The notes: generated by a model from the letters alone, not told the origin. A DNA stretch of 62,710 nucleotides, filler included, from Klebsormidium nitens (GCA_000708835.1; 4 parts of 4 records of this genome joined end to end with filler, not necessarily neighbours in it); one strand, 5' to 3'; shown: positions 8,301 to 46,010, counted from the first letter of the whole stretch. Made by a program: numbers and translations.

Positions 8301-8993
8301 AGGCCCGACCCACTCATCCGTAATCGCGGGGTAATGGAGTTAGACGACGACGTCTGGATGTCGTGCGGAGACCTCGAGCGGGGCTTTGCGCATTGGCGCA
8401 GACACCCCGAGCGGATTGTGGGCTACTACCCACGCTTGGCCGACGGGAAGCCGCTGACCTACCGGGGGGAGCAATACGCGTTTGAGCGGGGGCGATATAA
8501 CGTGGTGCTGACCGGCGCGGCGTTTCTCGACAGCGAGACCGCGTTCCCGCTCTACTTCAGCGAGGATTATCGGCGGGTGCGCGAGATCGTGGACGACCTG
8601 TTCAACTGCGAAGACCTCGCGCTCAACTACGTGCTCGGGATGAGGGCGAGGGAGCACACGACCATCGAGTACGTGCGGCCGAACCTGCGGGTGGACTTGT
8701 CGAAAGTGTCGAGCGTCGGCATCAGCCGGAACTCGGAGGAGCATGCGCGGCGGCGGTCGCAGTGTTTGCAGCGACTGGCGCAGCACTTCGGGCGGGAGGC
8801 GCCGCTGGAGAGCCGGCGACTAAGGGCGCCTCGGCCGAACTACTTCCCGGCGTTGTCCCCCTGGCGAGAGTCGGCCTGGGGGTGGAAGTCGGAAGGGCAC
8901 TTCGAAGGACGGAAACATGGGCACAGGGGCCACGGAGAGCACAGGTGGCACGGGGAGCACGGGTGGCATGGGGCCCGGGGCGGAAATGTATAG
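5359..8993 (+). CDS. GINT1: Glucosamine inositolphosphorylceramide transferase 1-like (beta-propeller-like N-terminus plus GT64/EXTL C-terminus), about 820 aa, 3 exons
   Basis: Exons 5359-5589, 6350-6637 and 7050-8993, all GT-AG phase 0. Motifs EGSWSIG, WPVANPVLTCAS, SNFVADPFL, WHLSYPFVF|IYMMPE, GQDCG..YG, WNGVRHHHVDV and GDHVPSG, then a TM segment, then GT64 motifs (NSLNNRF, ELDDD, FNCED) match the plant GINT1 family as I recall it. Confidence 0.92.
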
Positions 8994-9675: not shown

Positions 9676-10457
9676 GGCCTCAATATTTCAAATTTGAAGC
9701 AAGTGCAAGCTGCAGAAGGCCTGAAGAATGCATATGCAAGCTGGCCCGTTGGCACTCAGTAGCTTAGGCTATAGCTGCAGTGTTACTATAGAAAACTGCT
9801 CATGTGTACGTTTGGCAGCTGATCATTTGATTGCACATGGCGAGCTGCGCCTCGAACGATTGCATGCAATTTTGAATAACAATCGTGTGTCACGGAACAC
9901 AGCGTCGGCGTCTGATTGACGTCGGTCATGTGCCGTGAAGAGACATGTGGATCGGCTAAGCGTTTAAAATACATGGTACGGGCAATTCGTAGTATGCTAG
10001 GTTATAACTGAGTTGCATGTATGGAATTCATAGTCATTCATTATCGGGGTCGGGCCCCTTCCCTTGGTTAAGGATTGATTGAAAGGACACGATGGATCCT
10101 AAGCTGACGCTCAGAAAAGTATGGTTGGTATATGGCACGTTCTAAACAAGTTGCATTGGAGGTGGCTTGTGCTAACATTCAAGGCAATCCCCACAGCATC
10201 CACATTGTCCGTCCGAGAGGTTCACTACCCAGTTTGGCGGTGGCTCGCACTTTGGGACTTTGGATGTCCAAAGGGAAATGGCACAGGACATTGAAGTACA
10301 GGCAAATGACACTTACTGATTGAATGATGGCATCGCCGGAGGCGTGGGACATGGTGGNNNNNNNNNNNNNNNNNNNNNNNNNNNNNNNNNNNNNNNNNNN
10401 NTTAATTAATTAANNNNNNNNNNNNNNNNNNNNNNNNNNNNNNNNNNNNNNNNNNNN

Positions 10458-11777
10458 GCAGAGCTTCAGGCCGCGACAGGGAGCGCTCGATCCAAACGTG
10501 CCGATGAAACGGCCATCCGGAGAGCTTTCAAGGCGTCAGAGAGGAATGCGATGCAACTTGCGAAATGGCCTGGCCCTGATATCGAGTCAGTTCCAATCGC
10601 CACTCGGTGTTTGAGCCCGTTGAAAGGTCTGCTAAAGATCGACGGATTTGCGAGCGAGCTCAATGCAGCTCGAGACTACTTAAACACCACCTCGGGTGCA
10701 ATTCATCTACCGTCAGGCAAGCTGATCCCTCACCATCCAAGCAACATGCTTTCGAGAGCAACTGACACCGAGTATGTGGGGGCCGATTATCCGTCTCCAT
10801 TGATCGACAATTTCATGCTGCAAATCCAAATCCCAGAGATCATCCCCTTCTTGCAGATGACGCTGGGCTATGGGATCACCGGGCATTCGAATGAGAAGCA
10901 GTTCGTTATCTGCTACGGACCGTCGAATTCGGGCAAAACGAAGCTTCTCGCTCTTGTTAAAGCAGCGATTCGACTGTACTACTGCACGATGGATAGAGAT
11001 TGCGTCATTGGGGCCGGCGTGAGGTCCGAGGGCGCCGCTACACCGCATCTTTTAGCGCTTGAGGGGGCACACATTGCCGGCATGGAGGAGACAAAGCCGG
11101 ATGATGTATACAATGGAAACAATGTGAAGTCCATCTCTTCGGGCGGAGGAGGCATGAGTGTCCGAGGGCTGCACAAGGCCACCGTCGAGATTAAGTGTCG
11201 ATGTCTCCCAATCATCTGCACGAACTCCCTACCAAAGTTCGATGTGAAGGACTCCGGCACCTTAAAGAAGCTCCGCGTCTTTCCGTTCAAGCGAGAGTTT
11301 GTCGAGAATCCCCGACCTAATACGAACGAGCGTTTGAAGGACCTTCAATTGGATGACAAGATCGAAAGTATGGAATGGAGGAAGCAGATGCTGGCTTGGC
11401 TCGTGCGAGGCAGCATGGCATGGTATGCGAGAGGGAGTCTCCCGCAGGTGGAAGAGCTACCACGTGACATGCAGACTGCTCTTGAAGGATACGTAGAGGC
11501 CAATGATCATCTCAACAACTTCATTGCTGATCACTGCGTTAAGGGTGACAAACGGGGAATCCATGTTGACATACTCAAGCAAGCGTTTGAGAATTACATA
11601 GGAAGACGGGATCGTCCTATGACCGTCACCGAGTTCAAAGTGCTGATGCAAGGTGTGCCTGGTGTCACCTTTGCAAAACAGCTGAAGATATCTAAACGCA
11701 ATACAACCGGCTTCAAGGGAATCAGCTTGCGGCAATGCTATTCGATCAAAGATCGTTCTTGGCCAGCAGCCGCTTGA
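10458..11777 (+). CDS. Intronless D5-like superfamily-3 helicase (virus/Polinton-like primase-helicase C-terminal part); 5' end lost in the gap
   Basis: The frame is open from the gap edge at 10458 (ORF track starts 10551). D5_N-like IHLPSGKLIPHHPSNMLS, LGYGITG, Walker A GPSNSGKT, Walker B AGMEET, motif C IICTNSLP and LRVFPF. Confidence 0.88.
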   Translation, partial: AELQAATGSARSKRADETAIRRAFKASERNAMQLAKWPGPDIESVPIATRCLSPLKGLLKIDGFASELNAARDYLNTTSGAIHLPSGKLIPHHPSNMLSRATDTEYVGADYPSPLIDNFMLQIQIPEIIPFLQMTLGYGITGHSNEKQFVICYGPSNSGKTKLLALVKAAIRLYYCTMDRDCVIGAGVRSEGAATPHLLALEGAHIAGMEETKPDDVYNGNNVKSISSGGGGMSVRGLHKATVEIKCRCLPIICTNSLPKFDVKDSGTLKKLRVFPFKREFVENPRPNTNERLKDLQLDDKIESMEWRKQMLAWLVRGSMAWYARGSLPQVEELPRDMQTALEGYVEANDHLNNFIADHCVKGDKRGIHVDILKQAFENYIGRRDRPMTVTEFKVLMQGVPGVTFAKQLKISKRNTTGFKGISLRQCYSIKDRSWPAAA

Positions 11778-12184
11778 TCCCAGTGAGCCGGAGGCAGCAG
11801 CCGTTCCTACATTTGCAAGCGAATGGTGAAGGTTGGTGGTAGGTATGGTAGGCAACGAGTAGGCGCCTCAAAACTGCTGACTTTAGGAATGCTTCATGGT
11901 TCTACTATAGTAGAGGTAGTTAAGTAGTTATGATTATGGAGATATATAGTGAATTCATTCTTGCATGTTTGAAGAGCATAAAACACTCTTCATGGAGAGG
12001 GAAAAGTCCACCTACTACCTACTTGACTACCTTGAAAGCATCCCCTATCCATCTCGCAACCCTTACCTTCCCTCCGTTGCTTTTCAATCAGAGCCCTACC
12101 TATGCCACCTACCTCCTACAGCTTTGTCTATTCAAGGGCCGAAAGCGCGTCAGCTCTTTCGATTCTTCATTTGAGATATCTACC

Positions 12185-15100
12185 CTACTCTTGCAACAGC
12201 GCCCTCGCAATTGCGGCCGACCACACCACCGCCGCAATGGCAATGCCACGCTTTGCGTCGTCCACCCTCTTCAGCGTCGTGTTGAAACCACCAAGCAGCA
12301 AGGGTAGGATCACCATCAGGCTCTCCAACCCCGAGTACCAACCGAGAGACCGGAAGCCCTTCAGAAAGGAGTTGACCGACTCCACTGCCGACGTGTTGAC
12401 CCAGTGCAACGCAATATAGGCGTCAGCGGAATTCGAGGGCCCGCACTTGTGCACCTCCTGTCCGGCCTTCGAGAAGTGGAACCTGCACACAAGATAGAGT
12501 GTACATGGGAGGTCATGCGGCGCAACAAGCCTCGTTTCGCCTGCAGCCATTGTAGTTTGAAAGTTGATGTACACATTTTCAAAGCACAACAATCAACGCC
12601 CATTGCTGAATCAGCATGTATGTACACATAATACCTCCAGTTCTATGAACGCAAGACGGATCGGAGCTAAGCACAGCACACGTTGCCAAATAAGCTCAGA
12701 CGTACACTCACCTGTCGACCACGAAGCGCACGTCCCTGAAGAACGCCGGGGCTCGGCGCATTGAGTAGTTGCGCAGCGCGCACGAATTGTCATGCACCAG
12801 AGTTTCCGGAAGGTCCTCGCGCCGCAGCCGCGTGTAGAGCACGGTGAAGGCGTCCCGAGGGCTCTCTCCACGCAGCATGATGTGGAAGCCGTAGATCACT
12901 CGGTGCGAGCAGCAAAAGACAAAGGCCCCTCGACACCTCTTCGGCCGCTTCCCCTACTGCCCTTCTTCCCCGACAACTTTCCGGCCCCCTTCACTAGCCC
13001 CGGCACGTGCTCAGCATCCCAGTCGTTCATCGACTTCCCCGTTGCGCACTTGAACTCCTCCAAGGTTCGGCTGCGGCCATCCGGGTGCTCGAAGCTCGAG
13101 TAGTATGGTAACCCCCTCTTCTGCTCCCAACCAGGAAGGGTGTAGCACGCCAGCGCGTCCTGCTCCTCTCGAAAGCTGTGCCCCAACGGGAGCGGCTGCA
13201 GATCCTCCCCGTTCTCGTCCTTCCCCAGCCGCTCTCTCAAAAGCAACCGCTCGGCTGCACTCATCCGCTCCCATTGCCGAGGGCTCGGCTCCAACTTCTC
13301 GACCCCCGGGAGCAGCTCGTTTGCCAAACCTCGAGCCTCGTCCAACTGCCGCCGCTCCTCGATCGACAGAGGCCTCGCTCTTGCCTCTGCAACTAGGGCC
13401 ACTGCTCGGTCGAACGGCCAAATCGCCTGGTGCACCCAGCCCAACTGGCCATCGCCCTCGAACCCCGTCGCACCCCTCGCAAGCAGAGACAACAGGTACA
13501 ACTGATGGAGCGTCCCGGCAAAACATCCGGGGAATGTGAGCCCCCCGTACGCATCTAGGAGGTGCCGCAGGATGGGGGCGTCTCTACCCAGGTCCCGGCG
13601 GTCCTCGAGAGTCGCCTCCTCTCCGAGCAGCAACTTCCGGACCACGTGCAGCGCTCCACTGCCGATCAGGTCCTCATCGCTATCGTGCGCGCCCAACGAG
13701 TACAAGAGCTCCGTCCACTCGCCAACCCAATGCTCCCACAGGTTCGGGCTGAGCCCCCGCCGCTGGAAGTCCGCCTGGATCCCCGTCAGCAGCTGGAACA
13801 TGGCCAGGTTACGATCCCTGACCATTGTCTGCTGCTCCTCGAGAAGGCGCCTCCTGCCGTCTTCTGGGAGCGGCCCCTCGGCCTCCCCCGGTCCGAACCG
13901 CTTCACGACCCGGACATCCTCGTGAGCCAGCCCGTCGAGGAGGGCCGCAAAATCCGCCCTCGACAGCCGCTGCCCGAGCTTCTCGTCCTTCGGTCGATGC
14001 TGTGAGAGCCGTGCGATTGCCTCTCGCAGCTCGGGCTGCAGTAGGAGCTTGCGCTTCAGGCCACCCCCCTCGAGCCCCGCGCCGCAGTAGTCACGTCCGG
14101 AGATCGAATGCTTTTCGAGCAGCTGTCCCGTTGGGTAACGGCTGGGGTGACAGAAGGTCCGTCGCGCATCAAGGGAGGAGCTCCCAAGCCCGCCCGGCTT
14201 CTGGCCCCCATCGGCGCTCGCCAGACCGACAATGCCGTCGCAGAGAAGCACCTGAGGGGGTGAAAGGTTTCAATGATTCAATGTCGTTGAATGTACACTA
14301 ATGTCAGTGAATGAACGCAGACTATCATCGAATGTACACCTAATGTCATTGAATGGACACTAATCATCAACGAATGTACATCATCCCTCTTTTTACATGA
14401 TTTCGACGTCCACTGACAGCGAAGACACGAGAGACACAAGATTCTCGTGTTGAGCCTCAGCAACCATGTTGCTCACCCTTGGATGTGGCCCGCACAGCGA
14501 GCAGCAGTCTCGGATGCCGAGCCCAACCAGCTTGAAGAAGTCAAGACTCGCCCGACGCCAAGTCTCCTCGCTCAGCACGACGGCATCGGGGGTGCGCTGG
14601 AAGGCGCTCTGTGGGGTTGCAAGCTCGGCCTTGAAGGAGTGCCCGTGCTGCATCCCTCGCAGAAGCAGCTGAAGGCTCTCCTGGACGAAAATCGTCCTTC
14701 GGTTCCAGGCGTACAGCCCCAGCCTGGTGCTCTCCATCAAAGTGGATGGCGTGCGCCTCGTCCAAGCACTGGCAGTGGTAAATGCGCGTCTGGACCCCCT
14801 GACTCCACGATGCCGCCGTCACGGAGGCCTTGACCCATGCCTCCATCCATGACCCGCCGCACCGAGGGGGCTCCAACGGGCACGGAGCGCTAAGCAGCCC
14901 CTTCTCCGAAAGCTCCTCGAAATGGCATTCCCTGAGCTTGCTGACGCGGACGGGGCGCTCTAGCGAGGTCACCAACGGGTCGTGGAAGCTGAGGGCATCG
15001 CTGAGCCTCGCAAGCTTGGGCTTCGTGACCTGGACTGCCTCAGTGGTGAGCAGCTGGACAGGGGCGCGAACCCTCGAAGCCTTCCTGTGCTCGCAAGCCC

Positions 15101-24613: not shown

Positions 24614-27600
24614 GACAACGGCGACCCAGAGGGCAGGCCCCCGGGCCTTATGACGAAGATGACGAGCACCCCCTCCGGCCAGGGGGGCGCCGGCGCTCCT
24701 GGTGAATCCATGGACGTTGACAGTCGGCCACAGCCGTCCAGCGCCCATTGCAGTCAGGTGCGTCTCAAGTGCGAGTGCATGCGAACGCTAAAGAGAACCA
24801 AGCAAGCAGACCCATTCGCACACGCCCCCAGTTCCTTGCTTTTTGGGCAGTGTTGTAGACCGTCGCTTGGTTGTTGAAGAACCTCCCCGGCTGCCCAGAG
24901 ATTTGTCCAAAGGTCCAAGATTCTGTCCGGCTGTCCTGATCTCATTCCGGCTGAGGCTGCCCAACCTTCTTTGAGTGTTCAGAAACATGTCCGGTTGCCC
25001 AGGTCCCTGTCTGGCTGCCATAAACCCTCGCGTGTCTGCAAATGTCTGGTTGTCTAGAGTTCCGTCCGGATGCCGCCCAACAAATCTCTCCGGCTGTTCG
25101 AGATCATGTTCGGCTGACCGGAAAACTCGCCAGTCAATCTGCCGTTCCCAGAAACGAATGGTCATGTTACAGTCTCTTGCTAATCTCAACTTTGAGTCTG
25201 ATCTTTCTTCGCTTGAGGCTTGTTCTCATTCCGAATGAAACCAGCGTTCAACTTCCGTCAAAGTACTGGAAGTTTCTGGTATCGGCTCGAAAGCTGTCTA
25301 GGATTCATCTGCTGCATACTCACGGTGTTCTTGAAAGACCCTACGTATGCACCACAGAACTTGAGGAATCGAAGACCGTTCAGCTCTGCCGACATCATTC
25401 GGGAGCTTCGCTCTCAGAAGGTGTGACAGGAACTCGGACACTTGGACGAATATCTCCCCTGTTAACTACAAAGTTTCTACCTTAGGATGTCTGCTGACGT
25501 CACTTAACAAGCCCGAGCTAAAAAGGCATGCTACAAAGGCGGACACTCAGACAGGCATTGCTCCCATCACCATCAATCACAGAAGGATTCCACTCGGGTT
25601 GTCTGCTGACGTCACTTAACAGGCCTGAGCCCAAAAGGTTGGTCACAAACTCGGACACTCAGACAGGGGTGTTGGCATTGTCTCAACCCATCGCGCTGGC
25701 CATCTTGAGGTGATGGTTGCTGACGTCACGAAGCAGGCTCGAGCTCAAAAAGCATGTCACAAACTCGGACACTCGGACAGCGGTCTCTCAACAGCTGCAA
25801 CGCTAGTCTTAGCCTCACATTGATTCATTAATTCTTCTTATGTCAAGCGGCACGCATGGTTGTGCAGGCAAGCAGTGGCAGCAACCAGCAGCCGCCGCGC
25901 GCCTTCAGCGGAGAGGAGTGGCGGAAGACGGAGTCAGAAGGGGAGGGCGAGGACATCGAGGGGGCGGAGTTTGAAGGCAAAGACGAGTCCTCGGATGAGG
26001 AGACCTCTCAGGATCGCACCATGATCGACGACGCGCCTCAGGAAGAGGAGAACGAAGTGGTGCAGTACGGCCGGATCAACGCGGCAATGGAGACAGATTC
26101 GGACGCAGAGGGCTTCTCCCAGGCGCTGGCAAAGCTCAAGCGCCGCGCGCCGAATGTGGAGACCAACCCGGCCCCAAGCAACCGCCGGCGCCGCGTGCTG
26201 CTCTCACCCTCCGACTCCTCGAGCGAGGATGAGGGCAGCTCGTCCCCGGTTCGCAGCCAGGCCCCGAGCGCCAAGCACCCCCCCTTGCCGGAGGAAGGGG
26301 AAGCGCTTGGGGCGGACTGCCCGATGCCGGACGACCCCGCATGGGAGCCTGAAGATGACGGCTGGTCGGACGACCTGCCGCCGGAGCCCGAGGATGATGG
26401 CTGGTCGGACTTCTTCGACCTGAGCTTGGAGGACGACTTCGCCCAAGCGTGCGAGATCGTCCCACGTTCGCGCGGGGGCAGCAGCCCGGTGAGCACCCTC
26501 CACCCCCTCCTCCGCTCTTTCTTTTGTTTCTCGATCGGATAGGAACTCGGGGTGCAGTTTGTCTGCAGTCAGCTGATTGCATTAAGGCCTGATTGCGCGC
26601 CCAGAAGAAGTGAGCGCACAATTGCAACCAAATGATACAGAAGACATAGGGACTCTTTGATGAAGTCGTGTACATTGCCGGTCAATTGCCGACTTTGACA
26701 GGTGATGTTCGTGTACATAGCCATTCAACTCATGTACATAGCCATTCAATCCCTCAAGTTAAGAGCTGATGTACACGGAAACTCAACTCGCATTTCAGAA
26801 CTTTGAAGCGACCAGAAATCCGGACAACTCTAGGCGATAATCACAGTGATTCTTCTGGATTCTCAGGAGAAGAAAAGGTACATGCTCGAACAAACCTCCC
26901 TTCGTGTTGAGCGGCTGGTGCACATCACCCCCCCTTTGCAGCATGCCCGCCGATGTACTCGGATCCGTGAAGCACATCTGAAGACTAGGAGGCGGTGCCA
27001 ACGAACCAATGAAGACGTCACTTGATTTCGTACACAATAAAGTTAAGGAACTTCTGGACCCCTTCTGTTGTTTGCAGTGCTTCTAGGGTGCCAAAAAGAC
27101 TGGTCTAACTCTCTATACCGCACTTCCTCGCAGGCCGCAGCTGCCAACAGTGCTCCGATCGCCCTCGACGCGGCTGAGCCAACCTCGCTGGACCACTGGC
27201 TCACCTCGCCCTCCACCCCCGTCCCCGTCCCGAGCGCCGCGGCTGCCCAGAGCGCAACCAGGGCGGCCCAACAGGAGCAGAACCTACCTGCTGCGGCCCA
27301 GAGCTCAGGGGGCGCAACCAACGCCACCCAACCGCCCCCTGCTCCCCCCCCCTTCCCCCAGGGCGTTGCGGTGCAGGAAACGATGCCCTTCCGTCAGGTA
27401 GGCTTTTTTCGTGCAGATTGTGATCACCCCCTTTCTCCGCTTGGTAAGCGGTCGGCTCAAAATTAAAGTCGCTTTGCTTGCTGATGTCATTACGGTATTT
27501 TGAGGTTGACGCCGCGTGCTTCACACATTGTAACCGATGGTGACTTTCTGCACTGCTTTGAAGCAACGGCCATGTGATGCTCTCTCACGAAACTGGCTCA

Positions 27601-30600
27601 CTCGATGGGTGCTTATTTCTCGCAGGTACCCAGCCTAGCCGACGTGGGGGGGCCGTCACGAGTTAACCCCATCGTGGCCGCCGCTCATCACTTGCACACG
27701 CGTGGTGTGGTGGCGCTGACGTTCAACATGAAAGTCTCGCTGAACGACAAGGGAGAGGAGAAGAAAGCGCCGGCTGGCCTCATGCCAGAGTGGCAGAAGA
27801 AGTGCGATCTCGGCAACTGTTTGCGCCAAGGAGTCCGGCCCGGCAGGACCTGCCTCGCCATTGTGACCGAGCCCTCAGACATCATTGTCTTTGACGTCGA
27901 TAGCAAGGACAATGGGGTGGCGACCTTCGAGCAGGTGCTGGCAGAGCACGGCCCTTTGCCTGTCGACACCCCCTGGGAGTGGTCAGGAAATAGGCCTGGG
28001 AAGCACCTCTTCTTCTCCCTCTCGGAGTCCAAGGCCACTGGGTTGCTGAGCGGCGCCAGCAGGGCACGTCTACTTTATGAGGGCAAGAAGGTGGGCTGGG
28101 ACATGCGCGGCGAGGGTGGCATGATCTTCGTGGGCCCGAGCAGCTACAAGGGCATGGACGGCATTGTCCGCTCGTACGAGTGGGTGCAGGAGATCGCGCC
28201 GGACCGCTCCAACCTCCGCGCCATGCCCGGGTGGCTGATCCGGATCATCAACGACAGCGCTGCTCCTCCAGCACCACCGAGGTACAGCCCTTTTTCCGGA
28301 TCTGGACCAAGGGGGACGTACCAGGTTCCATCCTTGCCTTGTGCCGACATCCGGTTTTGTACGTTCCGCATCAATCGCGGTCTCTGTGTGACACACAGCC
28401 TCAGGTTGTTGTGGGAGATAGAGTCAGGCTGTTTTGGAGATGCACAGTCGGGCTGCTTTGGGGCCCTCGTTCAAGCTAGTCTCTGGGCCGTAGTCAAGCT
28501 GGTTTTGAAGGGCGCAATCAACCTATTGTGAAGCAGGTTTGGGGGCGGCGCAAGATCATAGCCGGATTTCCTCTTGAGACACAGCCGGGATGGCCTCTTG
28601 GCCGGAGTCAGTATGCTTTGGGGCCGCATTCAGGCTTTTTTGTTGGGCTGCAACCGGCCTGTTTTGGGTCCGCATTCGTCTTGTTCTTTCGGCCGTACAC
28701 AGGCCATTCCGGGACAGCGCCTTCAGCCTGTTGTTGAGGGCGTGATCAATCTTGCTTAAGATCTGCGGTCGGGCTCTCCTCCAGACCGTAGTCGGTCCGT
28801 TTCTGGGGCCGTAATCAACCTCTTCTGAGATGCCCCGAGAGACTACGCTTGCGGTCCCCTTCGTTTCAGCGACCACTCTCCTTTGATATCCTCTTCAGGG
28901 CAGCGCCATTGGCCCCCACTCGCTTCGCTGAGGGCCTCGATGCCGACGGAGTCGAGTTGCCCCCTCCGCCGGCGGTCCTGGAGCGCATCAAGAAGTGCCT
29001 TGCAGACGTAGGAGACACCTCCTCGCGCTTCGACAAGCTCAAGAGGTTCCCTGGGGGGCCGGATCTGTACGCCTACCGCGTCAGCGGCGCACGCGTGTGT
29101 CCGTATGGTGTGAGCCACAGCGGCTCGAACAACTTTTGTGTCCTGGTACGTGGTCGCGGTCTTTTCTACAAGTGCAACAGCTCCGAGTGCTGCGACGTTC
29201 ATCCGCAGCGCAAGATCGGGGAGCTCACGGCACAGGAGAGCATGGTGGGGGGCGAGACGGCCCCGGTTGCTGAGGACGACCCGACTGTGTACGACATGCT
29301 GACGAAGGCCTTTGTGGACTACTGGGCGTTTAAAGGAGACATGGGCGGCAGTCGGATTGTTGCGCAGATGTACTCCAGATGCCACTGGTGAAGCTACCTT
29401 TCGTCGTTTCTCGTTCAAGCTCCGCAATCTTGGGTGATTCTTTGAAGAGGTTTTAGGCTCTTTCCTTACGTGACCTCAATCCGACATTGGTTGGGATGTA
29501 CTCCTCTCTTGTGTCCGAACTTCGACTTCTTGAGAGCCCTACCGAAATCGCAATCCGAATGGTGTCCGCTGATGCTGTGTCCGAGTGTCCAAGTTTTTGG
29601 ATATGGGTTTGGAGTCAGCAACCCGAGATGACGTCAGCAGCCCCCCGCCCTCGCTCACTCGGCTCCAGTTGACAGCTTGCGTCGTCTCCGTGTGTCCTTT
29701 TGGGCCAGCAATCAATTTGACGGCGGCAGCGATTGCGCCATAATCTCTTGCAAAACCAACTGTCTGCTTTGCATCTTGTGTCCGAGTGTCCGCCTTTTGT
29801 GCACATCTTTCTCTTAGCAGCTCGGTGTGACAACAGCAGTTACCTCAGCCGATGAGCCTTCCTTCGTTTGCACGTAGATCAATGGGCATCATGGCCCAGT
29901 TTTCTCCACAATGAAGCTTGACTTTTCGAAGCGGCTAGAGAAGTGACACCTTTCCTCTTCTTTCTGACTGCAGGATCTGGTATGATTCGGAGGGCAAGAC
30001 TTGGTGGATATGGGATGGGAAGCGCTTCAAGCAGGCTGCAATCGAGACGGTCAGATATATCTGCATTCATCAGCTGAGCACCGTTTACGGTCGAGTTCGA
30101 GCAGAATTGAAGGAGCAGATAGATGAGACCGTCGACGAGAAAGAGAAGAAGCTGCTGAGCAAGCGTCTCGACAAAGTGAGACGCTACTACGACGCTGGTG
30201 AGATCGGCTCGACCTTGTCGATCATGGCAGGGGAGATGGCCCTGGATTTGGTGGGGGAGCTGGATGCCAACCCGGACATCCTGAACGTTCAGAACGGGGT
30301 CATCAGCCTGCGCACTGGCCAGCTCGACATTCACAGGCCGGAGTACTTGTGCACCAAGCTAGCTGACGTCAACTTCAAGGTGCGCTTCAAGTTTTTGGAT
30401 TGTGATGTCGTTTTTGTGCAGCTGTTGAGACACATACCGCCAGCGTGTTGGTTGACTAAAGAGAAGAGGTCACCTCAGAGCCTCTTCTTGCTGATATCAA
30501 CGTCCATGAAACTTCTCGAAATCACATTGACAGATTGAGGGATTTCTTTCCTGAAACCTTGTGGCCTTTGTGAAATGTTGAAGTCTTGAGGCTGCCACCT

Positions 30601-32196
30601 CAGGGATTACTTTGCACGTTCTAGCTTGATCATGTCCTAGCAAGCTGAGATGCCATGCAAAGTAGTGTGCAGCAAGGACTTGATGCTTTCTGCATTGTGG
30701 CCTTGGAAGTAAGCAGATCAGAAGAAGCTCCGGACGACCCGTTCCTTGCAGGGGCTCAGTCATCCGACCCCCACCATCCGCGATTTCCTGGCCGACATCT
30801 TCAACGGCGACCAAGCACTCATTGAGTTCATGCAGAGGCTATGGGGGTACGCCATAAACGGGCGGATCAGCGAGGAGATCATTGTGTTCTTACTCGGAAG
30901 CGGCGGTAGGTCGCTCACGTTAAAACCGCTCTGATTGCTCTTGTTTGGGCGTCTCTTTGTTCAACCGTCCAGGGATCCCCGTTTTCGAAAGCAACCCAAT
31001 GAGACAGCAGTCTTCAGCCATCCCCTCAAGGTCTGCTGCGATTGATAGCGTGCAAGCGTCCGAGTGTCCGCGCTCCGTGCTTACCTTCTCGAAGGGCCTC
31101 CTTTTGGTGACGTCAGCAACCATGCCGCCCAATAGCTTCTAGGTGTCCGAGTGTTTGAGCACTCTGCCCGCCTCTTGGAAGATACTCCTTCCAGATGACG
31201 TCATCAACCATCACACCCAAAATTCGCTCTTGATAGCTTCCAAGTGTCCGAGGTTTTTGAGCTCTGTGCCCACTTTTAAAAGATAGGGGTTTCAGCAGGC
31301 AGTCTGACTACTCACCCTGCTCTACTTGATGTGCAGGGAATGGCAAGGGGGTCTGCAAGGAGATGCTCGAGAATACGCTGGGCGAGTACTACGGAGTGAT
31401 GGCCAAGGACGCTGTGGTGAAGCCTCCCGGGCAGCGACCCCCCACCAAGGGTGCTGCCACGGGCTACCTCGCCGAATTGAAGGGCTTCCGGGTTGCTATC
31501 ACGGACGAGACGAGCCCGGGCGAGCGCGTTGATCTCGGGCTCGTCCTCATGATGACCGGCGGGGGAAAGCAGAGTTTTCGAAACCTCTTCGAGAAAAACG
31601 CTACGATCCGCTTTACCCATACGCCTTTCATCCAAACCAACTACGATCCTGAGATCCCCCCGACCCTGGCGAAGCAGGCCAACATTGACCGCCGCCTCAT
31701 CGTGGTTCGATTCCCAAACGAGTACGTGTCTGAGAACAAGTTCGACGAAACGAACCCTAGCCATAGGCTCGTGGATGGCAGTCTGAAGCAGCGGATGCAG
31801 ACGCCAGCGGTCTGTGAAGAGTTCCTCACGTTCTTGGTCCAAGGGAGCTGCGCTTGGTACGAGGACCCCACGGTCTTGCGCCGGCACCCGCCGGCCGTTC
31901 AGGCGGCCTCGATGGCGTGGCTGCAGCGTGGAGACAAGCTGCAGACCTTCCTGCAGTCGGAGCACTGCGTCCTGGACGCAGCTGACACGCCCGACGCCAC
32001 AAAGACCGTCACGTGGGAGGACGAATTCTGGAGACAGTTCCAGTTGTTTGCAGGGCTGAAGATTGCCAAGGAGGAGTTGGCTAAGCAGATGCGGGAGAAA
32101 GGGTATGGGAGAACGAAGCGCGCTGGGCGTTTCACCGGTGATCTCGCTTCTCAGCGGAGCTCGTGCTATGTAGGCTTCAAGTGCGAGTACGATTGA
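24614..32196 (+). CDS. Spliced virus-type primase-helicase: acidic low-complexity N-terminus, Prim-Pol (AEP) domain, Zn-binding module, D5_N, SF3 helicase; 5' end uncertain
   Basis: Exons 24614-24757, 25868-26488, 27134-27397, 27626-28281, 28899-29387, 29974-30379, 30752-30905 and 31337-32196 splice GT-AG with consistent phases (the last five total 2565 nt = 855 codons). Prim-Pol motifs IIVFDVD, GKHLFF and DMRGEGGMIFVGPS; Zn motif CPYGVSHSGSNNF...YKCNSSEC; D5_N WWIWDGKRF and LNVQNGVISLRTG; Walker A GSGG|NGKG; Walker B ITDET; motif C IQTNYDP. A further upstream exon at 24048-24319 is possible. Confidence 0.88.
26570..26815 (+). repeat. About 250-bp dispersed direct repeat (copy 2), inside a primase-helicase gene intron
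   Basis: See the copy at 22812-23050. Confidence 0.9.
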
Positions 32197-33107
32197 CACG
32201 CGTCCACCTTGTAAAAGCCAGTTGCTTGCTTGTTCCATGAGGCTTGCTTCGATGAGAAGAATTGTACATAGACTGATTGCCCACCTCTTGAAAGAATAGG
32301 CCATTAGGGGCGAGCAGAATTGAGAAGCATTTTTCCGTCGTAAGAACCAGTCGCTTGCTTTCAAGTTTCTTCCACTAGTCTTGCATTGACCGTTGGGTAG
32401 AACTGTACATAAGTTATTGTTTTCTGCCGACCTTTCAGAGAGTAGGCTTTAGGTACGTGTTACGATTGAGAGGCCTTTCCACGAAAACGAAAAAAACAAG
32501 TCGCTTGCTGTTCCGTTAGTGGTGCTTTGTTGAATAGTATTGTATACAAGGTAGATCAGGTGCCCACCTTTGTGGAGGTAGCATAAATGATGCTCTAGCT
32601 AACAAGTCCTTTGGCTCGTGGCCGTTTGCGTATATGGTCACATATGTTACCAAGCATGCTGTTTGTACAAAATCCAACCGTATGATGCATGTCATTCATG
32701 GAAGCCGGTAGCAATTTGTAGTTCAATACACAGGGGCATACTACACTAGTATGACGGTGAATATGGATGAAAGGCGGAATGGCTGCTGACGTCATGAAAA
32801 GAGGACCTTCTGAGAAGGTATGCACAGGTCTCGGACACTTGGACGCAAGCTTAGCCACCATCAACTACAGCAGATACATATTGCTAGTGGACTGGCTGCT
32901 GACGTCATGAAAAGGGGACCTTCCGAAAAGGTCTGCGCAAATCTCGGACACTTGGACGCACGCGACTTTCCACGAAATGTCGCTGGCCTCTAAAGGTGAA
33001 GCGAGCGGCCCGTCACTCTCGTCTGTTGATCCTTACTAAGAATCGCATCGAGGCTTAGAAGAATGCGAAATGAACAATCATACAGAATCGAGCGGTCTAA
33101 GCACGAG

Positions 33108-34371
33108 ATGGCGGACCCCAGCATCGCTTCGCTGCATCATTCCGCTGTGCCCGAAGTATCTAGACAACAATGGGAGAGGCGGAACAACCGCTACGTTTGC
33201 CTTGAAAATCATTCGGATCGACATGAAGGAGCGTGCAGTAGGGACTTTGCGTCGAAGCAAGCTCTCGAGGTCCACCGCGCAAGGACCGGTTGCGAGCCAG
33301 CAAAGCTGCCCATCGAGCGTCGCATCTCTAGGTTGCGAGGCTTGAGCCCTGATGAAGCCCATCGCATGAAGCAGCGAAGCAATCATGCTGCAGTTGCGAA
33401 GTACCGAGATACCTTGAAGGGAAAGTGGGCCACCTTCAGAGCCCGCCATATGGCAAAGTACCGCGATCTCTCGTTGAAAGCCGTACCGGCGCCCCCAGAG
33501 CCCGAGGCACCGCCCTACATGTGGCCGCCAATCTCGTGGCTTCTGGCAGACGCTCAGTTCACCCCCAACGAGGTGAAGGCGCGGTTCGCTTCAGGTAACA
33601 TCCAACTGAGCCACTCGACCTGGTCCCTGAGGTTTCACCCGGATAAGGTTCAGGTGAGATGGTCTAAGCCCTGCCTTCATAGACCCGTGGCCATCAAACA
33701 AATGACTAAAGATAGTGTACATCTTTGCTCATTGTGACGCTCAAATTGTATTCAAGTCCCATTCCTATCATGCGGCCATCAGAAAGATGTCTGAGTATAG
33801 TGTACATCTTTGCTCATTATGATGCTTAAAGTGTACATCAAGTCACATTCCTATCATGCGATCCTTTGATTAGTGTACATCTTTGCTCATTTGGATGCTT
33901 GAAGTGTACATAGATGCTTATTTAAAGTTGTGAGAAATACCACGGTGGCCAACAAGTCCTCGTTCTTTGTGATAACAGGAGAGAAGCCCGCACCATTTGG
34001 AAGACTTTGGACGACACTACATCCACGAGCTACGCAAGCTTGGGAGGGAGAGCGCGGGACCAAGTTCTCTTAACGCTGTACAAGCTCTCTATGCCACCGA
34101 GCTGTTTGCGCCTCTAAACGATCGCTTCAAGCAAGGCCTCAACGCTCAAAAAGCAGGAGGCATGCTCTGGAAGGCGTGGCTCAACGTGGAGGTTGCACTC
34201 GTTACAGATTACGTGGTCTATCTTCTGAGGGTTGCAGAGTTCGAGGAGCGGGTCCTGCAACGTGCAAGCACTACAGAGTTGCTTAACGCAGCTCGAGGAG
34301 CTTGGGTTGAAAGACAGCTAGAGGTGCAGTTTTTGAAGTCGAAGGCATATCGAAGGTACCACGAGCCGTAG
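33108..34371 (+). CDS. Hypothetical 2-exon protein with an atypical C2HC zinc finger and a J-domain-like HPDK motif
   Basis: Exons 33108-33653 and 33979-34371 (GT-AG, phase 0). YVC-x11-CSRDFASKQALEVH-x5-C keeps the C-x3-F-x5-L-x2-H spacing of classical fingers; WSLRFHPDK lies just before the intron. Confidence 0.55.
33712..33915. repeat. AGTGTACAT-type minisatellite in the intron of the Zn-finger gene
   Basis: TAGTGTACATCTTTGCTCATT x3, AAGTGTACAT x2 and CAAGTC.CATTCCTATCATGCG x2. Confidence 0.85.
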
Positions 34372-34473
34372 TATCGAGGCCCTTCACCGATTTCGTCACC
34401 TCTTCACCAACTTCGTCTTGACAATCTGCACAATTTCGCTTCTTAAATAATAAAGCAAGTGGAATTGAATGCC

Positions 34474-35028
34474 ATGGACTCGATTGTTCGTTATCAACCG
34501 AAAGACCGAGCTGCAGTGATTGAATTGGACAATCAAGTACATAAGTCCGTGAGGTCGGCCATCATCCGTTGCTATAAAGATCTAGGCACCACAAACACTT
34601 ATCTTGACATCGGAACTCTAGCAGGCTTGAGAGCCTTGACCCCACCACACAATCTGGCCCGTGTCACTCAAAGAGTTGTGAGGTCATTAAATGCAGAAGG
34701 TTTTCGTGCATTTCAGGACACGTCCGACTTACATGGCCCTACTCTGTATACCGTCTTCGTCGATTGGAGAAGCGCATTGAAAAGCGCAAGAAAGGCAGAG
34801 CGGAAGGCCCACTACCGGGCTCGAAATGTAAACGCCGATGCCTTAGAACGGAGGAATCTCCCTTCGAGGCAGAGTCATCGCAATCTTGAGTGCACGGCAG
34901 CTGGAGGTGGCGTTGATGATTGGGAGAACGAGGACATGGAAGTATTATTGCTGGACTGGCTCGCTAATCCGGCAAAGATTCGTAATAAGCAGAGCAACGA
35001 AGAGAATGTGCCCCTTTTGAAAAAATGA
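34474..35028 (+). CDS. Small intronless hypothetical protein, paralogue of 453-893
   Basis: Within ORF 34459-35028; GCCATG start (MDSIV). IIRCYKDLGTTNTYLDIGTLAGLRALTPPHNL aligns ungapped with IKRIYEEERCTSMTLKLGKIAGLKGMLPPHSM. Confidence 0.65.
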   Translation: MDSIVRYQPKDRAAVIELDNQVHKSVRSAIIRCYKDLGTTNTYLDIGTLAGLRALTPPHNLARVTQRVVRSLNAEGFRAFQDTSDLHGPTLYTVFVDWRSALKSARKAERKAHYRARNVNADALERRNLPSRQSHRNLECTAAGGGVDDWENEDMEVLLLDWLANPAKIRNKQSNEENVPLLKK

Positions 35029-35379
35029 ATGCCCTTAGAATGCCCAATGAATGAAAAGTGTACAGCGATATTCACGTTTTCTAGATTAATCACTTTTCNN
35101 NNNNNNNNNNNNNNNNNNNNNNNNNNNNNNNNNNNNNNNNNNTTAATTAATTAANNNNNNNNNNNNNNNNNNNNNNNNNNNNNNNNNNNNNNNNNNNNGT
35201 CTCTTATCTGAATCAGTCCGACTCAGCATTGCCTAAACCATCACTGAATCTAAGCCGTCGATAAAGTATCACTCAGTTATCGAGGTTATACTTCTGGTTA
35301 TATCTGGCCTCTGACTAACCGAGCTGAGTGCAATCTAGCCATCATAGAGATTCTACTTCTAACAAGGAGAACCCTGAAT

Positions 35380-36420: not shown

Positions 36421-36477
36421 TATCTAGAGTACCGTACCTAGCTAGCATGCTTCGTACGGCACCCAAGGCCTACTGCA

Positions 36478-39400
36478 ATGCGGTACAATACGTTCCCGGC
36501 CGTTGACGCGGTCGTCGCTCACTACCAGGCTCTGACCGGTGCCGCCTCTGGCAAGCCCACAGCTGATCCCCCTGCTCCCCGCATTGTGGACATCTCCGAT
36601 GCCGCTGACGCAGACGTGGCTGCAGCAGGTCGGTTCATTCCCGCACGAATCCGTCCCTTGTTGCAAGACTGCGCTTGCGCTGGCCGCCAGTCCCGCTTTT
36701 TCGAGCACGAAAGCTTCCAGCCTTTTGTTTCTTGCCCATCTCGCTTAGGCCCCCCATCCTTTTCTGTCTGTATATTCTATACATCTGCAAATGTCGTTCG
36801 CCACCTCTCTGCCCCTAATGCATCTCTTGCCTGTCCCTCTCCTCCTCAGATGCTGCACCTGCCGCCATGGAGCAGTAGACCAGGGTACCATCTTCTCAGC
36901 TCTCTTGCACGTTTTAGGTGCGTTCTCCATCGTTTCCCCTGCTCCCTCGCAGCACTTTTTGCCTATCAGCCACCTCAACTATCATACTTTTCCTCAACTC
37001 GCGACACACATCCCTCTTACTTTCCCCCATTCACACCCCCTTCTCTCCGCTCACCTCCCTCCGGCCCGTCTCAACTTGCGACTTCCCCCTCGGTTTCATA
37101 TTCCAGCTTTGTTGACGGCTCGCTTCGCCTCTCTGAACCTTTCTCATTGCATATTTTAACTCCCCGCTACCCGCTCTCTGCAGTTTGGCGTTCGGCCGCA
37201 GGGCATCGCTCGAACCGCGTGACCCGTCCCGCACTTTGTGACGCCCCCAGCCGACCTTTCGATTCTCGTATAGCGCCTCACTTAGTTAAATTGATAGTTT
37301 CAGTGGCAAGACCGCCACTCTCTTTCATTGATACGTTGCCTTCGTTTGGTATGATAGATGATGCCACTAGTACGCTTGTTATGCACATCTTTGCTTCTCG
37401 CATCGCTTTAGGACTTGCTATGCTTCACTGGCTTCCCTCTTGTATCTCCATCATCTGTACCGCCTATCAATTATGGCGCCGTGGTACGAGTCTCCTCTCT
37501 CGACAACACTTTCGATCGGCTGCACGATCGTATATGCGACGTTCAACTGCACACACGGTCTGTAAGACCCGTCGCTTACTCTCCAGCTACATCATATTCT
37601 ACCTACTTTGCTGCCGGCTTCAGTTTGCCGCCCTCAATACTTTTCCACATGACACACCTTTCTCGCCCTCGTCAAACCCGCATGCCCGCTGCAAGTCCTA
37701 CGCTCGCTCAACACGGGCCCTCAATCACTTGCTCATCGAATGTCAATCACATCTATCCGCCGTCTTCCACCGTCTTCCAAATCAACGCCCAGAGTACATC
37801 CTGACATATGTATATTTCCTCTTCATTTTCGACCCCTCCGTTTGGCCTCACACGGACGCTTTTGCATCCACCACATGGACGCCCCTCATATATTACACTG
37901 CCGCTCACGCTTTTCTTGTAACCATCATCTCTTCCATTCTGCCCTATGCTTCAGGCAGAACCTCGCTTCGCCATTTGTTTCACATCCCCATTGTGCGTAT
38001 CGCATACCGCCATATTCACCTCATCTACCATAGCACGCTGCATCGTTTTCGTCCGACCCAATCTCTTCTCCGCTCCTTTTCTCATGTTATTCCTTGTATC
38101 AATCACGTCCGCCGCTCTCAGTCATACCATCAACTTTCTACGCTCTTCTTCTCAATGTTTTCATGCTTGGCGCTCCTCAATCTCTCGCGTTTGCTCCTCG
38201 TACTAGGCGGTGATATTCACCCCCACCCCGGTCCACAGCCTGAGCCATCTCAGACCACTGCGCTACCACCCATTATTAGTGACCATCTCAACATCCTGAA
38301 TTGGAATTGTCGGGGCATCGACGCTAAGCTTGCTACAATCCCCAGGTTTTTGCGTCAACATGACATCCACATTGCCATCTTCACTGAAACCCGCTGCTCT
38401 CTTGGGGTCCACAAGAGCAACAATGAAGTCCGCTCTGTAGACTATACTTTTTATTTTTCCTCACATGTCGACTCGTCGCATAGCGTCTCCTATCTCCCAT
38501 CCCGAAACCGAGAATGGGGCGTCTGCATCGCCGTACGCACCGGCCTAGCCTACCAGTCCACTTCTAGTGACCTCTCCCATTTCCGCGCACGCCTTCAGCA
38601 CGGTACCCTCAGCATCCCTACCCCGACGGGAACTCTTGTCCAAATTGACATTGTTGGCGCATACGCCCCCGCACAATCAGAGCAAAAGAGTGTATTCTGG
38701 GAGGCTCTCACGTCATACGTTCTCCCTCTTGCCCCCCCTACAGTCACAACTCCAGAGACACACCCAAGGCATACTATTCTTGCCGGTGATTGGAACAGCT
38801 ATCTTGATCTTGAACGCGACATCTACCGTGCCGACCCACCTGACACAATGGAGCGCGCCTCCCCCGCAGCACATCAGCACCTCGCGCGTTTCTTAACAAA
38901 CTTGGCCGATGACGGCTTTCACCTGTATGACCCAATGGCTCGAGACAAACTTTCAGCATATAACGACTTCACTTACTCATCGTCGAAACAAACATACCGT
39001 TCAATCCTTGACAAAGTGTTCACATCCTTTCCTCCCGACCATTGTGAGCCTACCCAGATTCTCGACTCTTCTGTAACACAGTCCCTCGGCCTCTCTGACC
39101 ACCGGCCCGTCTTTCACAGCATCAGTCTAGCTCGACTCTGCCATGGCTGGCTCGAATATCCTGCTGCCCGTCTTAGCCGACCCCGAATCGACATTGACAC
39201 TGCTCATTTGTCTGCCGATCAAGAACTAGCCCTACGGAACGCCGTTCTTGACTGGCAACGTGCCCTCCCAGCCCCTCTGGCCACTGCTCTGCTTCACGAC
39301 TCTACTGAACCCGCACCTCATATCTCTTCTGATACACTGATTGCTTTGCATGCACAACTCTCAACTCTTTTTGTTACTATTCCTGCCACTGCTTTCAACA

Positions 39401-44346: not shown

Positions 44347-46010
44347 TGCGGTACAGTACGGTACCGGAACTCTCCGACTGTACAGTGTGTACCGTAGATC
44401 TAAGAATAGGTACCTTACGTATCTAGGCAGGTACTGTAACTACCATTCCGTTCAGAGTTCATAATGCATTCCGAATGAAATTTCTTAAACTTACGCAATA
44501 TTATTGCTCAAGTCCACCAGTCTGTGCTTACCTTATCTTGTTCAGGCCGGGCAAGGCCGTTCATGAAGAGGTTCAAATGAAGTTCCAAATTTGGAAGTTC
44601 AAACCACCATTCATACCTTATCCTCAAGCTGCTAAAGGGAAGCGCTTTCTTGGGTTCTTCGCAAAAGAAAGGACCATCTTTGAGAGCGCCAATAGAAAGT
44701 ATGAGATGTCCAAATTTGATCTTAAACAGAGAGGCAACTGAAATATGCTTCGATTAATATGATTGAAATTCTTGACTGGCAGTGACTCTCTGCTCATGTA
44801 GCGCCTGNNNNNNNNNNNNNNNNNNNNNNNNNNNNNNNNNNNNNNNNNNNNTTAATTAATTAANNNNNNNNNNNNNNNNNNNNNNNNNNNNNNNNNNNNN
44901 NNNNNNNAGTTTTTTAGTATCACACTGCCACGATCGCGGGCGGCGGCGCGCCGCGCGCGCCTGCAACTTACTACTAAAGAAGTTCAACAAGCCCGCGGCC
45001 GCGGCTCCACTGAAGCACGCGTGCGCGAGCGCCCAGCTATTTATACCGGTAGGTCATGCTATAATTTTCTTCTCTTATTTAGTTCTTGTGTGCATTGTGC
45101 AATCAAATCATAGAAGGCAATGCAGGATGCAGCACCTTCTTGTTGGCGCATGCCAGCTTGCAACAAGGTTGGCGTCATTTGAAAGTTCTTCGCCTCTTCA
45201 AGTCTCTTTATATGGTTTGAAGAGGGGCAGTCGAGGCGACTCGGCGCGGACATGCCGCACCGAGGCCGCACCATGGCAATATGCGACTCCATGCTGATCA
45301 GGTGAGGGTGTCTTCGGATTACAGCCAGCCAGCTCTAGGGACGCATTACGCCCGGGCTCTGCACGAATTCTAGCCCCGTGCTGTTTGACTCCTCTTCATC
45401 TAGTTTCATACTCTTGCATTTCTTCCTCGTACAATTTTCACATTTTGACAATCTTTAGGCCCTGACCCAATGCAGCATCACTGCAAATTGTCTGCAGAGA
45501 AAGACTCCAGTCCATCTTACCAATTCTGAGTTGCAGCGCCCCATATGTTGCACACAGTCCAGGGGCTCCAATCAGGGGGGAAAGGGGCGGGGCGCACTCA
45601 GCAGCTCTTTTAATGAGCTTTCTGTTGCACGGCTCTGCTACCAGCAGCTTGAAAAGCTTTAAGGCTGAAGTGGGATTCAAGGAAACAAGGGCAAAACCAA
45701 AATCCAGCTAAAAAAGGGATGCTTATGTGAATTCAGAAGTCCCTGGATCCTTGTCAAAGCCTATCCTTGTCCTCAAGTGCACTGTCCGGCAGGTATCAAG
45801 TCCCTACATGAATCCTGTCGCAACCGCGCTGGCCCCCTTTGTACGCTTTTCCAAACATGCATTAGAGATCCCTCTTCTCTTGCTCGCTCTTATTTCCTTC
45901 CCTCTTACTGTCTTCTCCTTTCCGTAGTATCAACACCTGACCATCTGCAATACTACCACCCCTGAATGGAAGTGCCCTCACACTCTTTACTCCTCGCTTC
46001 TCACTCTCAG

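Follow-up and report, generated by a model that had tools for sequence, protein, structure and literature searches.

The window, a stretch of 62,710 nucleotides from Klebsormidium nitens, contains between positions 10458 and 35098 a block in which a Zisupton-type KDZ transposase gene is accompanied by genes for two Prim-Pol/D5 primase-helicases of separate families (here D5-A and D5-B), three further genes and several repeat families. According to the gap map this block is one entire scaffold of 24,641 bp, a size equal to that of the scaffold listed for P0206, which is the block's own D5-B gene model (the D5-B exons match it at 95-100% in 13 of 14 same-gene alignments). Both outer gaps are N44-linker-N44 joins to other scaffolds, and an inner gap of 141 N lies at 23771-23911. 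An earlier note on this DNA had placed the first gap at 10338, where the gap map has it at 10358-10457, and had supposed that the outer gaps hide possible ends; since the block is a complete scaffold with joins at both edges, neither an element end nor host flank is visible in it. As that note had stated, the block holds no recognisable housekeeping gene (no such Pfam family in 17 block ORFs, then in 66 ORFs). Its observation that capsid, packaging ATPase and PolB are absent also held for the 17 block ORFs and the 66 further ORFs, the search covering the block as far as its scaffold ends. Comparison of 13 proteins with PHROGs gave no capsid or packaging ATPase match, although divergent capsids may escape these libraries, and Rfam gave 0 matches within the block.

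The KDZ gene (12188..17093, minus strand) was delineated by tblastn of 10 paralogs, splice sites, motifs and matches to Pfam SWIM, CxC4 and KDZ that all scored below Pfam's cut-offs. It consists of four exons (about 17093-16509, 16205-14477, 14251-12712 and 12482-12188). The previous description of a SWIM/CxC-KDZ transposase was borne out by SWIM in the window (E=0.0014) and by CxC4 (three of four paralogs) and KDZ in the paralogs; the domains stand in Zisupton order, each with a score under its cut-off. The KDZ family itself (PF18758) weakly matched an 80-aa piece from the window (E=0.047) and matched four of the four paralogs tested at E=1e-5 to 0.006, the best score being 25.8 bits against a cut-off of 26.6. 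Motifs CDG, HDN and ES, which we take to be the DDE triad of conserved acidic catalytic residues, are present in the window KDZ and in four paralogs (P0001, P0002, P0003 and P0005). The combination of SWIM, CxC4 and KDZ is the canonical Zisupton architecture (PMC11343200). The 10 paralogs are located on 10 scaffolds and are 54-82% identical, which indicates a dispersed multi-copy family. The KDZ profile had no sequence match in PDB, and the predicted fold was discarded as unusable (pLDDT 42). Two frame breaks are present, near 14726 (4 extra bases) and near 12955 (a G run, one base short), of which one might be a sequencing error. Judged by its sequence, the window copy encodes a transposase without an intact frame and would not be autonomous. 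Zisupton/KDZ elements are recognised by TIRs and an 8-bp TSD (7 bp and no TIR in Kyakuja); a scan for both inside the block, a scaffold without host flank, gave 5 candidates against 0-3 in 5 shuffles, which is chance level, and none of them was credible.

D5-A (10458..11777, plus strand; Pfam D5_N, PHROG primases) corresponds to the 3' half of a Prim-Pol/D5 primase-helicase gene without introns, comprising D5_N, the SF3 helicase and the C-terminal domain and truncated by the scaffold end. Its D5_N match (E=5e-7) agrees with the intronless D5 helicase noted before, and its Walker A and Walker B motifs read GPSNSGKT and EE. P0194 of scaffold 1080, to which it is 78% identical, has the Prim-Pol part as well, and a confident fold model was obtained for a D5-A relative (pLDDT 84). 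D5-B (about 23480..32196, plus strand) is an intron-rich gene with an acidic N-terminus and Prim-Pol, Zn-binding, D5_N and SF3 helicase parts, mapped by Pfam and by exons from P0206 and P0217; it spans the inner gap, and its start exon at 23480 matches the N-terminus of P0217. Its reported identity as a Prim-Pol/Zn/D5 primase-helicase was confirmed by Pfam (Prim-Pol E=1e-13, D5_N E=3e-17). Prim-Pol is intact (E=1e-13), as are the Walker A/B motifs in D5-B and D5-A relatives. Besides the window's own, the species has at least 23 D5 gene models, in three clades, and in our quick tree neither D5 clade has a supported sister outside. The best fold matches are D5 proteins of giant viruses (Bodo saltans virus, Harvfovirus), with identities to named viral proteins of at most 19% by fold alignment. 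No relative was found in the viral contigs scanned, the metagenome contigs scanned returned no locus, and among the best 15 of 818 phage records there were only distant primases (at most 28% identity). One close outside relative lies on scaffold 80 of Asterochloris, a scaffold with a viral insert (PMC6652019).

The three remaining genes are all on the plus strand. At 19444..20380, translations and break contexts point to a probable pseudogene, broken at a G run near 19775 and at an 11-bp tandem duplication near 20310, with the residues D...EVK...A..Q, presumably a PD-(D/E)xK-like motif. A two-exon gene with C2H2-like and HPD motifs, called from its translation and splice sites, occupies 33063..34371 (exons 33063-33654 and about 33980-34371); Pfam gave nothing above cut-off for it, and its Atlas matches (at most 0.78) were under the lead level. 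The former labels of these two genes, PD-(D/E)xK and Zn-finger/HPD, were motifs seen by eye, and family searches or matches lend them no support. A single-exon orphan ORF of 184 aa at 34474..35028 has a sub-threshold ABM match only; it and the ORF at 33063-34371 are present as previously described. Exact look-up of 5 window ORFs, the orphan included, found none in the protein collection. An Atlas match to the TGT family (0.85) was rejected as a lead, being below 0.9.

By motif count, the 8-bp sequence ATGTACAC occurs 16 times between 12499 and 33911, always outside exons (0.44 copies expected, at most 3 in 200 simulations), in two KDZ introns (12499-12627 and 14291-14339), at 22910-23016, in a D5-B intron (26668-26776) and in the intron of the Zn-finger gene (33715-33911), and is absent from the window's other scaffolds (37.8 kb). 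Related minisatellites had been reported in introns of these three genes; the common core stands, but beyond it self-BLAST found nothing that the arrays of one gene share with those of another. Self-comparison further identified, at 22813..23087 (plus strand), an 83% copy of the D5-B intron DNA at 26570-26847 that carries three ATGTACAC. Motif counts also revealed dispersed GCTGACGTCA...CTCGGACA repeats of 70-115 bp in the D5-B introns and just downstream (23583..32963); their core occurs 17 times in the block (0.8 expected) and not on the other scaffolds, with 16 of the 17 matches non-exonic and the 17th inside the D5-A coding sequence. Upstream of KDZ, repeat searches located four CAAATGAAGTTCGG-family units, clustered and alternating in orientation (17440..17780), as a candidate subterminal or origin region. 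Sites of this family are at 17485 (+), 17703 (-), 21195 (+) and 17455 (-), with an arm at 17724-17776 (-), and a 62-bp copy (82%) of the unit at 17483 was found by self-comparison at 21193..21254 (plus strand). This agrees with the family members noted at 17485, about 17705 (inverted) and 21195, but not with the one at 35389, which was rejected as it has more than 3 mismatches and lies on a different scaffold. A 2-mismatch copy at 44574 is also on another scaffold. A GGTAG/CTACC iteron array after D5-A was dismissed, the density of the motif in the block not exceeding that on the other scaffolds.

Co-occurrence of KDZ and Prim-Pol/D5 genes elsewhere, which the earlier note had proposed as a check, was found for one KDZ lineage, on scaffolds 1080 and 152, though in permuted order; linkage on both was read from gene numbers, orientation there not being directly visible. 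Scaffold 1080 (14,890 bp) carries in succession a D5-B gene (010; P0210, 83% identical to the window's), one unknown gene, a D5-A gene (030; P0194, 78%) and a KDZ gene (040; P0002, 72%). The three are similarly diverged and have kept their motifs, and, going by the spacings in the window, the run from D5-B to KDZ should cover 11.9 kb. The gene order of the window differs from this by a cyclic permutation. On scaffold 152 (171 kb), a D5-B gene (090; P0166, 97%) and a KDZ gene (120; P0001, 82%) are three gene numbers apart; both are sisters of the window's genes (support 100/100 for KDZ, SH-aLRT 100 in the quick tree for D5-B), although their identities to the window are discordant. In addition, the JGI metagenome lists one size, 43,596, for the contigs of P0018 (a D5-A of the window-like subfamily) and P0190 (D5-B1), so that one contig appears to hold both; only one of seven JGI D5-B1 contigs (38-102 kb) has the same size as a D5-A contig. 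All linked KDZ genes belong to a single clade (99/99), in which three of six members, the window included, show the linkage against none of five outside, and the other three members of this clade are the first genes on their own scaffolds. The pattern that had been named as speaking against a joint element, KDZ and primase-helicase genes occurring independently, holds in part: 8 of 10 KDZ paralogs (six of these on scaffolds of at least 46 kb) have no detected D5 on their scaffold and 20 of 22 D5-bearing scaffolds no detected KDZ of at least 801 aa, in lists that are incomplete, the same searches having missed the KDZ and D5-A models of the window itself; yet scaffolds 1080 and 152 are linked. 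For two of 10 KDZ paralogs to have a D5 within 3 genes, a crude calculation that ignores segmental duplication of related copies gives P=0.003, or 0.04 for a 4,000-gene pool. Scaffolds below 50 kb carry 16 of the 24 D5 models, the window's own counted.

Polintons and Polinton-like viruses are 14-40 kb long, have a D5-like primase-helicase and integrate into algal genomes. The proposed unit resembles them in size range and, for replication genes, has two D5-like genes and no PolB, but a capsid, packaging ATPase, protein-primed PolB, retroviral-type integrase and tyrosine recombinase all went undetected here, and its genes have spliceosomal introns. Prim-Pol/SF3 replicons such as phage P4 alpha and archaeal pRN1 combine Prim-Pol, Zn-binding and SF3 helicase parts in a single protein, which can start replication without a PolB of its own; the same parts are united in one predicted protein here, whereas those replicons are prokaryotic. 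NCLDV inserts are marked by MCP, PolB, ATPase, VLTF3 and D5 in gene-dense, intron-poor DNA, and of these D5 alone was found, with introns in D5-B and KDZ. The giant-virus contigs endogenous to Klebsormidium have PolB, capsid, ATPase and VLTF3 (PMC5294986); a table row of that paper shows four of five markers, the absent one presumably being D5, judging from the paper's text. The block shares with these contigs the genus and virus-type genes in several diverged copies, but none of their four markers was found in it. Among transposons, a Cryptococcus KDZ element is 11 kb long with extra genes, TIRs and an 8-bp TSD (PMC11343200), and fungal Kyakuja, Dileera and Zisupton elements bear TET/JBP cargo (PMC12730594). 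Like these elements, including KDZ1/KDZx1 of Cryptococcus, the present family is multi-copy with extra genes beside the transposase; unlike them, its partners are two virus-type Prim-Pol/D5 genes in place of TET/JBP or unknown ORFs, the proposed unit would measure about 27 kb or more instead of 6-11 kb, and no TIRs or TSDs were seen in the block. Teratorn of medaka is reported to be a 180-kb, largely virus-derived piggyBac-herpesvirus fusion (PMC5601938). It likewise joins a DDE transposase to virus-type replication genes, with the difference that here the transposase is KDZ, the virus-like genes are primase-helicases only, no virion genes were found, and a single large element is proposed from gene linkage. 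The Plavaka giant repeats of Amoebidium, also comparable, are tandem repeated-gene clusters that reach 50 kb and are bordered by a DNA transposase (PMC11244446), but they are intron-poor and with Plavaka transposase and tyrosine-recombinase genes, and D5 is not mentioned in the available excerpt of that paper.

Because relatives of the KDZ and two D5 genes are neighbours on two other scaffolds, the block is likely most of one large capsid-less mobile unit with a length of about 27 kb or more. That one KDZ lineage moves such a unit together with both primase-helicases is our preferred reading, held tentatively and at slightly less than an even chance. Its main rival is passive segmental duplication, in which a KDZ transposon and two D5 families met once in a repeat-rich region and the patch was then copied and rearranged. 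The partnerless state of most KDZ and most D5 copies, the permuted gene order, the discordant ages for scaffold 152, the want of credible termini in the scan of the block, the broken KDZ and PD-(D/E)xK-like genes of the window and the local duplication at 22813-23087 would all fit such a history; we nonetheless consider it rather unlikely, as it leaves aside that ATGTACAC is common to the introns of three unrelated genes and absent from 37.8 kb of other scaffolds, that a metagenome contig also appears to pair D5-A with D5-B, and that the scaffold 1080 genes are about equally diverged with motifs retained. The genes might also have come together by chance where a fragmented assembly is dense in repeats, or by a false join at the inner gap. 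This could draw on the abundance of D5 models on small scaffolds and on a P of up to 0.04 with a small gene pool, but is very improbable given that D5-B crosses the inner gap with exons on either side matching P0217, that the same repeat units lie on both sides of this gap, and that it is the nearest relatives of the window's genes that are linked elsewhere.

Alternatively, the unit might be a replicon based on D5, or else what is left of a giant-virus or Polinton-like insert after decay, that spreads by itself through tandem amplification or a circle, with KDZ as a passenger in one lineage. The numerous D5 models, mostly without KDZ, the giant-virus fold matches, the relative beside a viral insert in Asterochloris (PMC6652019), the giant-virus contigs reported for the species (PMC5294986) and the cyclic gene order speak for this. 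Its probability is nevertheless low, in view of the absence of capsid, packaging ATPase, PolB and any other integrase from the block, the many spliceosomal introns of D5-B, the scant identity to named viral proteins, the unsupported outside sisters of both D5 clades and the lack of relatives in the viral contigs scanned. A separate, bolder reading has a eukaryotic replicon of about 27 kb, devoid of a capsid, that is copied by its own two different virus-type Prim-Pol/D5 proteins via a circular or tandem intermediate and integrates by KDZ; the scaffold would then match a single unit almost exactly, with the opening within D5-A, and this would account for the cyclic permutation of its gene order relative to scaffold 1080. 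We regard this reading as doubtful.

With the preferred reading of a KDZ-mobilised unit, we infer that one KDZ lineage became joined to a module of D5-B, Zn-finger, orphan and D5-A genes, and that the permuted scaffold represents the tail of one copy beside the head of another, or a single unit with its opening in D5-A. To cut and paste the unit, the KDZ enzyme would recognise its ends, and insertion would leave a 7-8-bp target duplication, as with fungal KDZ elements; with its broken transposase, the window copy would depend on a second copy acting in trans. Priming and unwinding of the unit's DNA would fall to the Prim-Pol/D5 proteins and bulk synthesis to host polymerases; this is the weakest step, and the proteins may be mere cargo. 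Self-replication of the unit seems improbable. The composite transposon-virus element envisaged in the earlier note gains from the recurring linkage, but loses the repeat link at 35389.

It is already known that KDZ transposons carry cargo and, from Teratorn, that a DNA transposase can be fused with a virus; no description of a pairing of KDZ with a primase-helicase was found in the literature searched. If the unit moves as one, an alga closely related to land plants would harbour a new intermediate between transposon and virus, which would also account for the at least 24 diverged D5 genes that lie apart from capsid genes in this genome.

The block of 24,641 bp between the first two linker gaps (10458-35098) appears to be one whole scaffold, with window neighbours that come from different scaffolds. 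The window contains three N44-linker-N44 gaps (10358-10457, 35099-35198 and 44808-44907). Because the outer gaps are scaffold joins, they are uninformative on element ends; the proposal in the earlier note that they conceal such ends was not borne out, since both join the block to other scaffolds. The single inner gap (141 N) is a true join, as D5-B primase-helicase exons on either side match the paralog P0217 and the same repeat units occupy both flanks. Every close named relative of the block proteins is from Klebsormidium, and P0206 (tag KFL_009020050), whose contig is listed with exactly the length of the block, matches the D5-B exons in 14 hits to one gene, 13 of them at 95-100%. The remaining 37.8 kb of the window served as same-genome background for motif counts. 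This background includes a host gene that encodes GINT1_N and glycosyltransferase-64 domains (7023-8993, plus strand, separate scaffold) and an intron-rich plus-strand gene (about 45000-53320) that by eye resembles a berberine-bridge-type FAD oxidase. A LINE-type retrotransposon (36442-44207, plus strand) occupies a separate 9.6-kb scaffold; its two overlapping frames encode endonuclease, RT, RNase H, zf-RVT and a C-terminal OTU-like protease domain.

The gene content, domains and repeats noted earlier for the block were mostly confirmed. The KDZ transposase (17093-12188, minus strand) retains CDG, HDN and ES motifs, which we take to be catalytic. It has SWIM, CxC4 and KDZ matches, each below the Pfam cut-offs, a combination given as the canonical Zisupton architecture in PMC11343200. 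Its frame is broken twice, once by four extra bases, and the PD-(D/E)xK-like gene is also broken twice, once by an 11-bp duplication. Pfam, PHROGs and atlas searches returned no family match for the latter gene, the Zn-finger/HPD gene or the orphan. The HPD motif (33633-33654) lies at the end of exon 1 in the context LRFHPDK, which resembles a J-domain loop; Pfam searches of the separate exons gave no support. Neither capsid, packaging ATPase nor PolB was found among 17 block ORFs, among 66 ORFs of at least 60 aa from unexplained stretches, or among 13 proteins compared with PHROGs, in agreement with the earlier reading, which recognised none of them.

Two distinct primase-helicase families are represented. 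D5-A (10458-11777) has no introns and comprises the 3' half of a Prim-Pol/D5 gene whose full-length relatives measure about 900-950 aa. D5-B (about 23480-32196), a Prim-Pol/Zn/D5 gene, is rich in introns. They share about 28-30% identity and form distinct, fully supported clades in a quick tree of 69 rows, in which neither has a supported outside sister. The predicted structure of a D5-A relative (a confident model) best matches giant-virus D5 proteins, with identities of at most 19% among the best 50 matches listed. A transcript of a second species, K. subtile, groups with the subclade D5-B1. At least 24 D5 gene models are present in this one algal genome, divided among the clades A (without introns here), B1 and B2; they include P0011, P0012, P0013, P0014, P0015, P0173, P0201 and relatives; further relatives occur on JGI metagenome contigs and in the second species. 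Most of these models have no detected KDZ neighbour. P0011 and P0015, one a B1 and the other a B2 helicase, are near-identical in their N-terminal regions, and P0011 contains the acidic segment twice, which suggests that D5 subfamilies have recombined. A D5 homologue lies on scaffold 80 of Asterochloris, part of which is viral (PMC6652019), and it may sit within that part.

Linkage was judged by the scaffold and gene numbers in paralog tags, irrespective of strand on scaffolds 152 and 1080, and the KDZ search covered proteins of 801-2285 aa. It yielded 10 KDZ paralogs on 10 scaffolds, while D5 searches and cluster look-ups yielded 23 D5 models besides those of the window, on 22 scaffolds; two scaffolds, 1080 and 152, carry both. 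On scaffold 1080 (14,890 bp), genes 010 (D5-B), 030 (D5-A) and 040 (KDZ) are 83%, 78% and 72% identical to the window copies, and the window spacings predict 11.9 kb for this run. Gene 010 is flagged partial, and its model begins at the boundary of the last exon, so it probably faces into the scaffold. On scaffold 152 (171 kb), gene 090 (D5-B, 97%) and gene 120 (KDZ, 82%) are each sister to the window copy in their own tree; the unequal identities fit either two separate copies meeting in the block or independent histories. A JGI D5-A of the window's subfamily and a D5-B1 lie on contigs of equal size (43,596 bp), which we take to be one contig; D5-A was not detected on six of the seven JGI D5-B1 contigs (38-102 kb). 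The D5-linked KDZ copies all fall in one clade (99/99), where they make up three of six members including the window's, and D5 linkage was found for none of the five members outside it. The association of KDZ with primase-helicases proposed in the earlier note is independently supported by scaffolds 1080 and 152, but within one KDZ lineage only; no element end, target duplication or sign of replication accompanied it. Eight of the 10 KDZ paralogs showed no D5 partner, and 20 of the 22 D5 scaffolds showed no KDZ partner. These absences, like that of D5-A from JGI contigs, carry less weight because the searches also failed to recover the KDZ and D5-A models of the window itself.

The repeats were also compared across the block. 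The 8-bp motif ATGTACAC was counted 16 times against an expectation of 0.44 (never more than 3 in 200 simulations), and no copy falls in an exon. The copies lie in introns of KDZ (two introns), D5-B and the Zn-finger gene, and in a duplicate of the D5-B intron at 22.8-23.1 kb; the other scaffolds of the window have zero. Only this core is common to different genes, which makes it a shared motif rather than one minisatellite family; of the relatedness noted earlier for intron minisatellites of the KDZ, primase and Zn-finger genes, the shared core is what holds. The CTCGGACA-core family (17 matches versus 0.8 expected) marks D5-B introns. Units of CAAATGAAGTTCGG occur four times at 17.44-17.78 kb, their orientation alternating, and once at 21193; a further copy proposed at 35389 fails at 3 mismatches. 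A 2-mismatch copy at 44574 on another scaffold indicates that the family is not block-specific. Searching the block for inverted repeats with 7-9-bp flanking duplications gave five hits (0-3 in five shuffles), none credible. Elsewhere, a 78-bp repeat (82%) lies inverted on different scaffolds (2016-2093 and 53610-53685), each copy near a local inverted pair, and probably represents a small dispersed element. At 58811-59489 and 60761-61205 there are three repeat units, each about 236 bp long, and a cluster of GGGCCCCC-rich repeats.

Our leading, if tentative, explanation of the recurrent linkage is that one KDZ lineage moves a large single unit in which the D5 genes are cargo or serve to start replication. 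The genes run D5-B, X, D5-A, KDZ on scaffold 1080 but D5-A, KDZ, pseudogene, D5-B, Zn-finger, orphan in the window. These differing orders can be joined as a single cycle, a pattern compatible with two adjacent copies, with a tandem array or circle, and also with rearrangement. Nested elements passively copied by segmental duplication are a less probable source of the same linkage, and a KDZ passenger in a D5 replicon or viral remnant seems rather improbable. Chance is less plausible still. A crude null for two of 10 KDZ paralogs having a D5 within three genes gives P=0.003 for 16,000 genes (a total based on protein numbering) or 0.04 for 4,000, figures that ignore shared descent.

Prim-Pol/SF3 proteins prime and unwind DNA in P4- and pRN1-type replicons, and by analogy the D5 proteins of a KDZ-moved unit might prime and unwind its DNA; the self-replicating reading of such a unit nevertheless appears doubtful. 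The KDZ enzyme would act by cut-and-paste with a short target duplication, as in fungal KDZ elements (PMC11343200 and PMC12730594). We found no paper pairing KDZ/Zisupton with a primase-helicase, or on Klebsormidium KDZ, in a search without most subscription literature and Repbase, and the accessible parts of the two Klebsormidium virus/primase papers found do not describe the pairing. The block is best regarded as a likely cargo-carrying KDZ transposon, and its pairing with primase-helicases is likely new.
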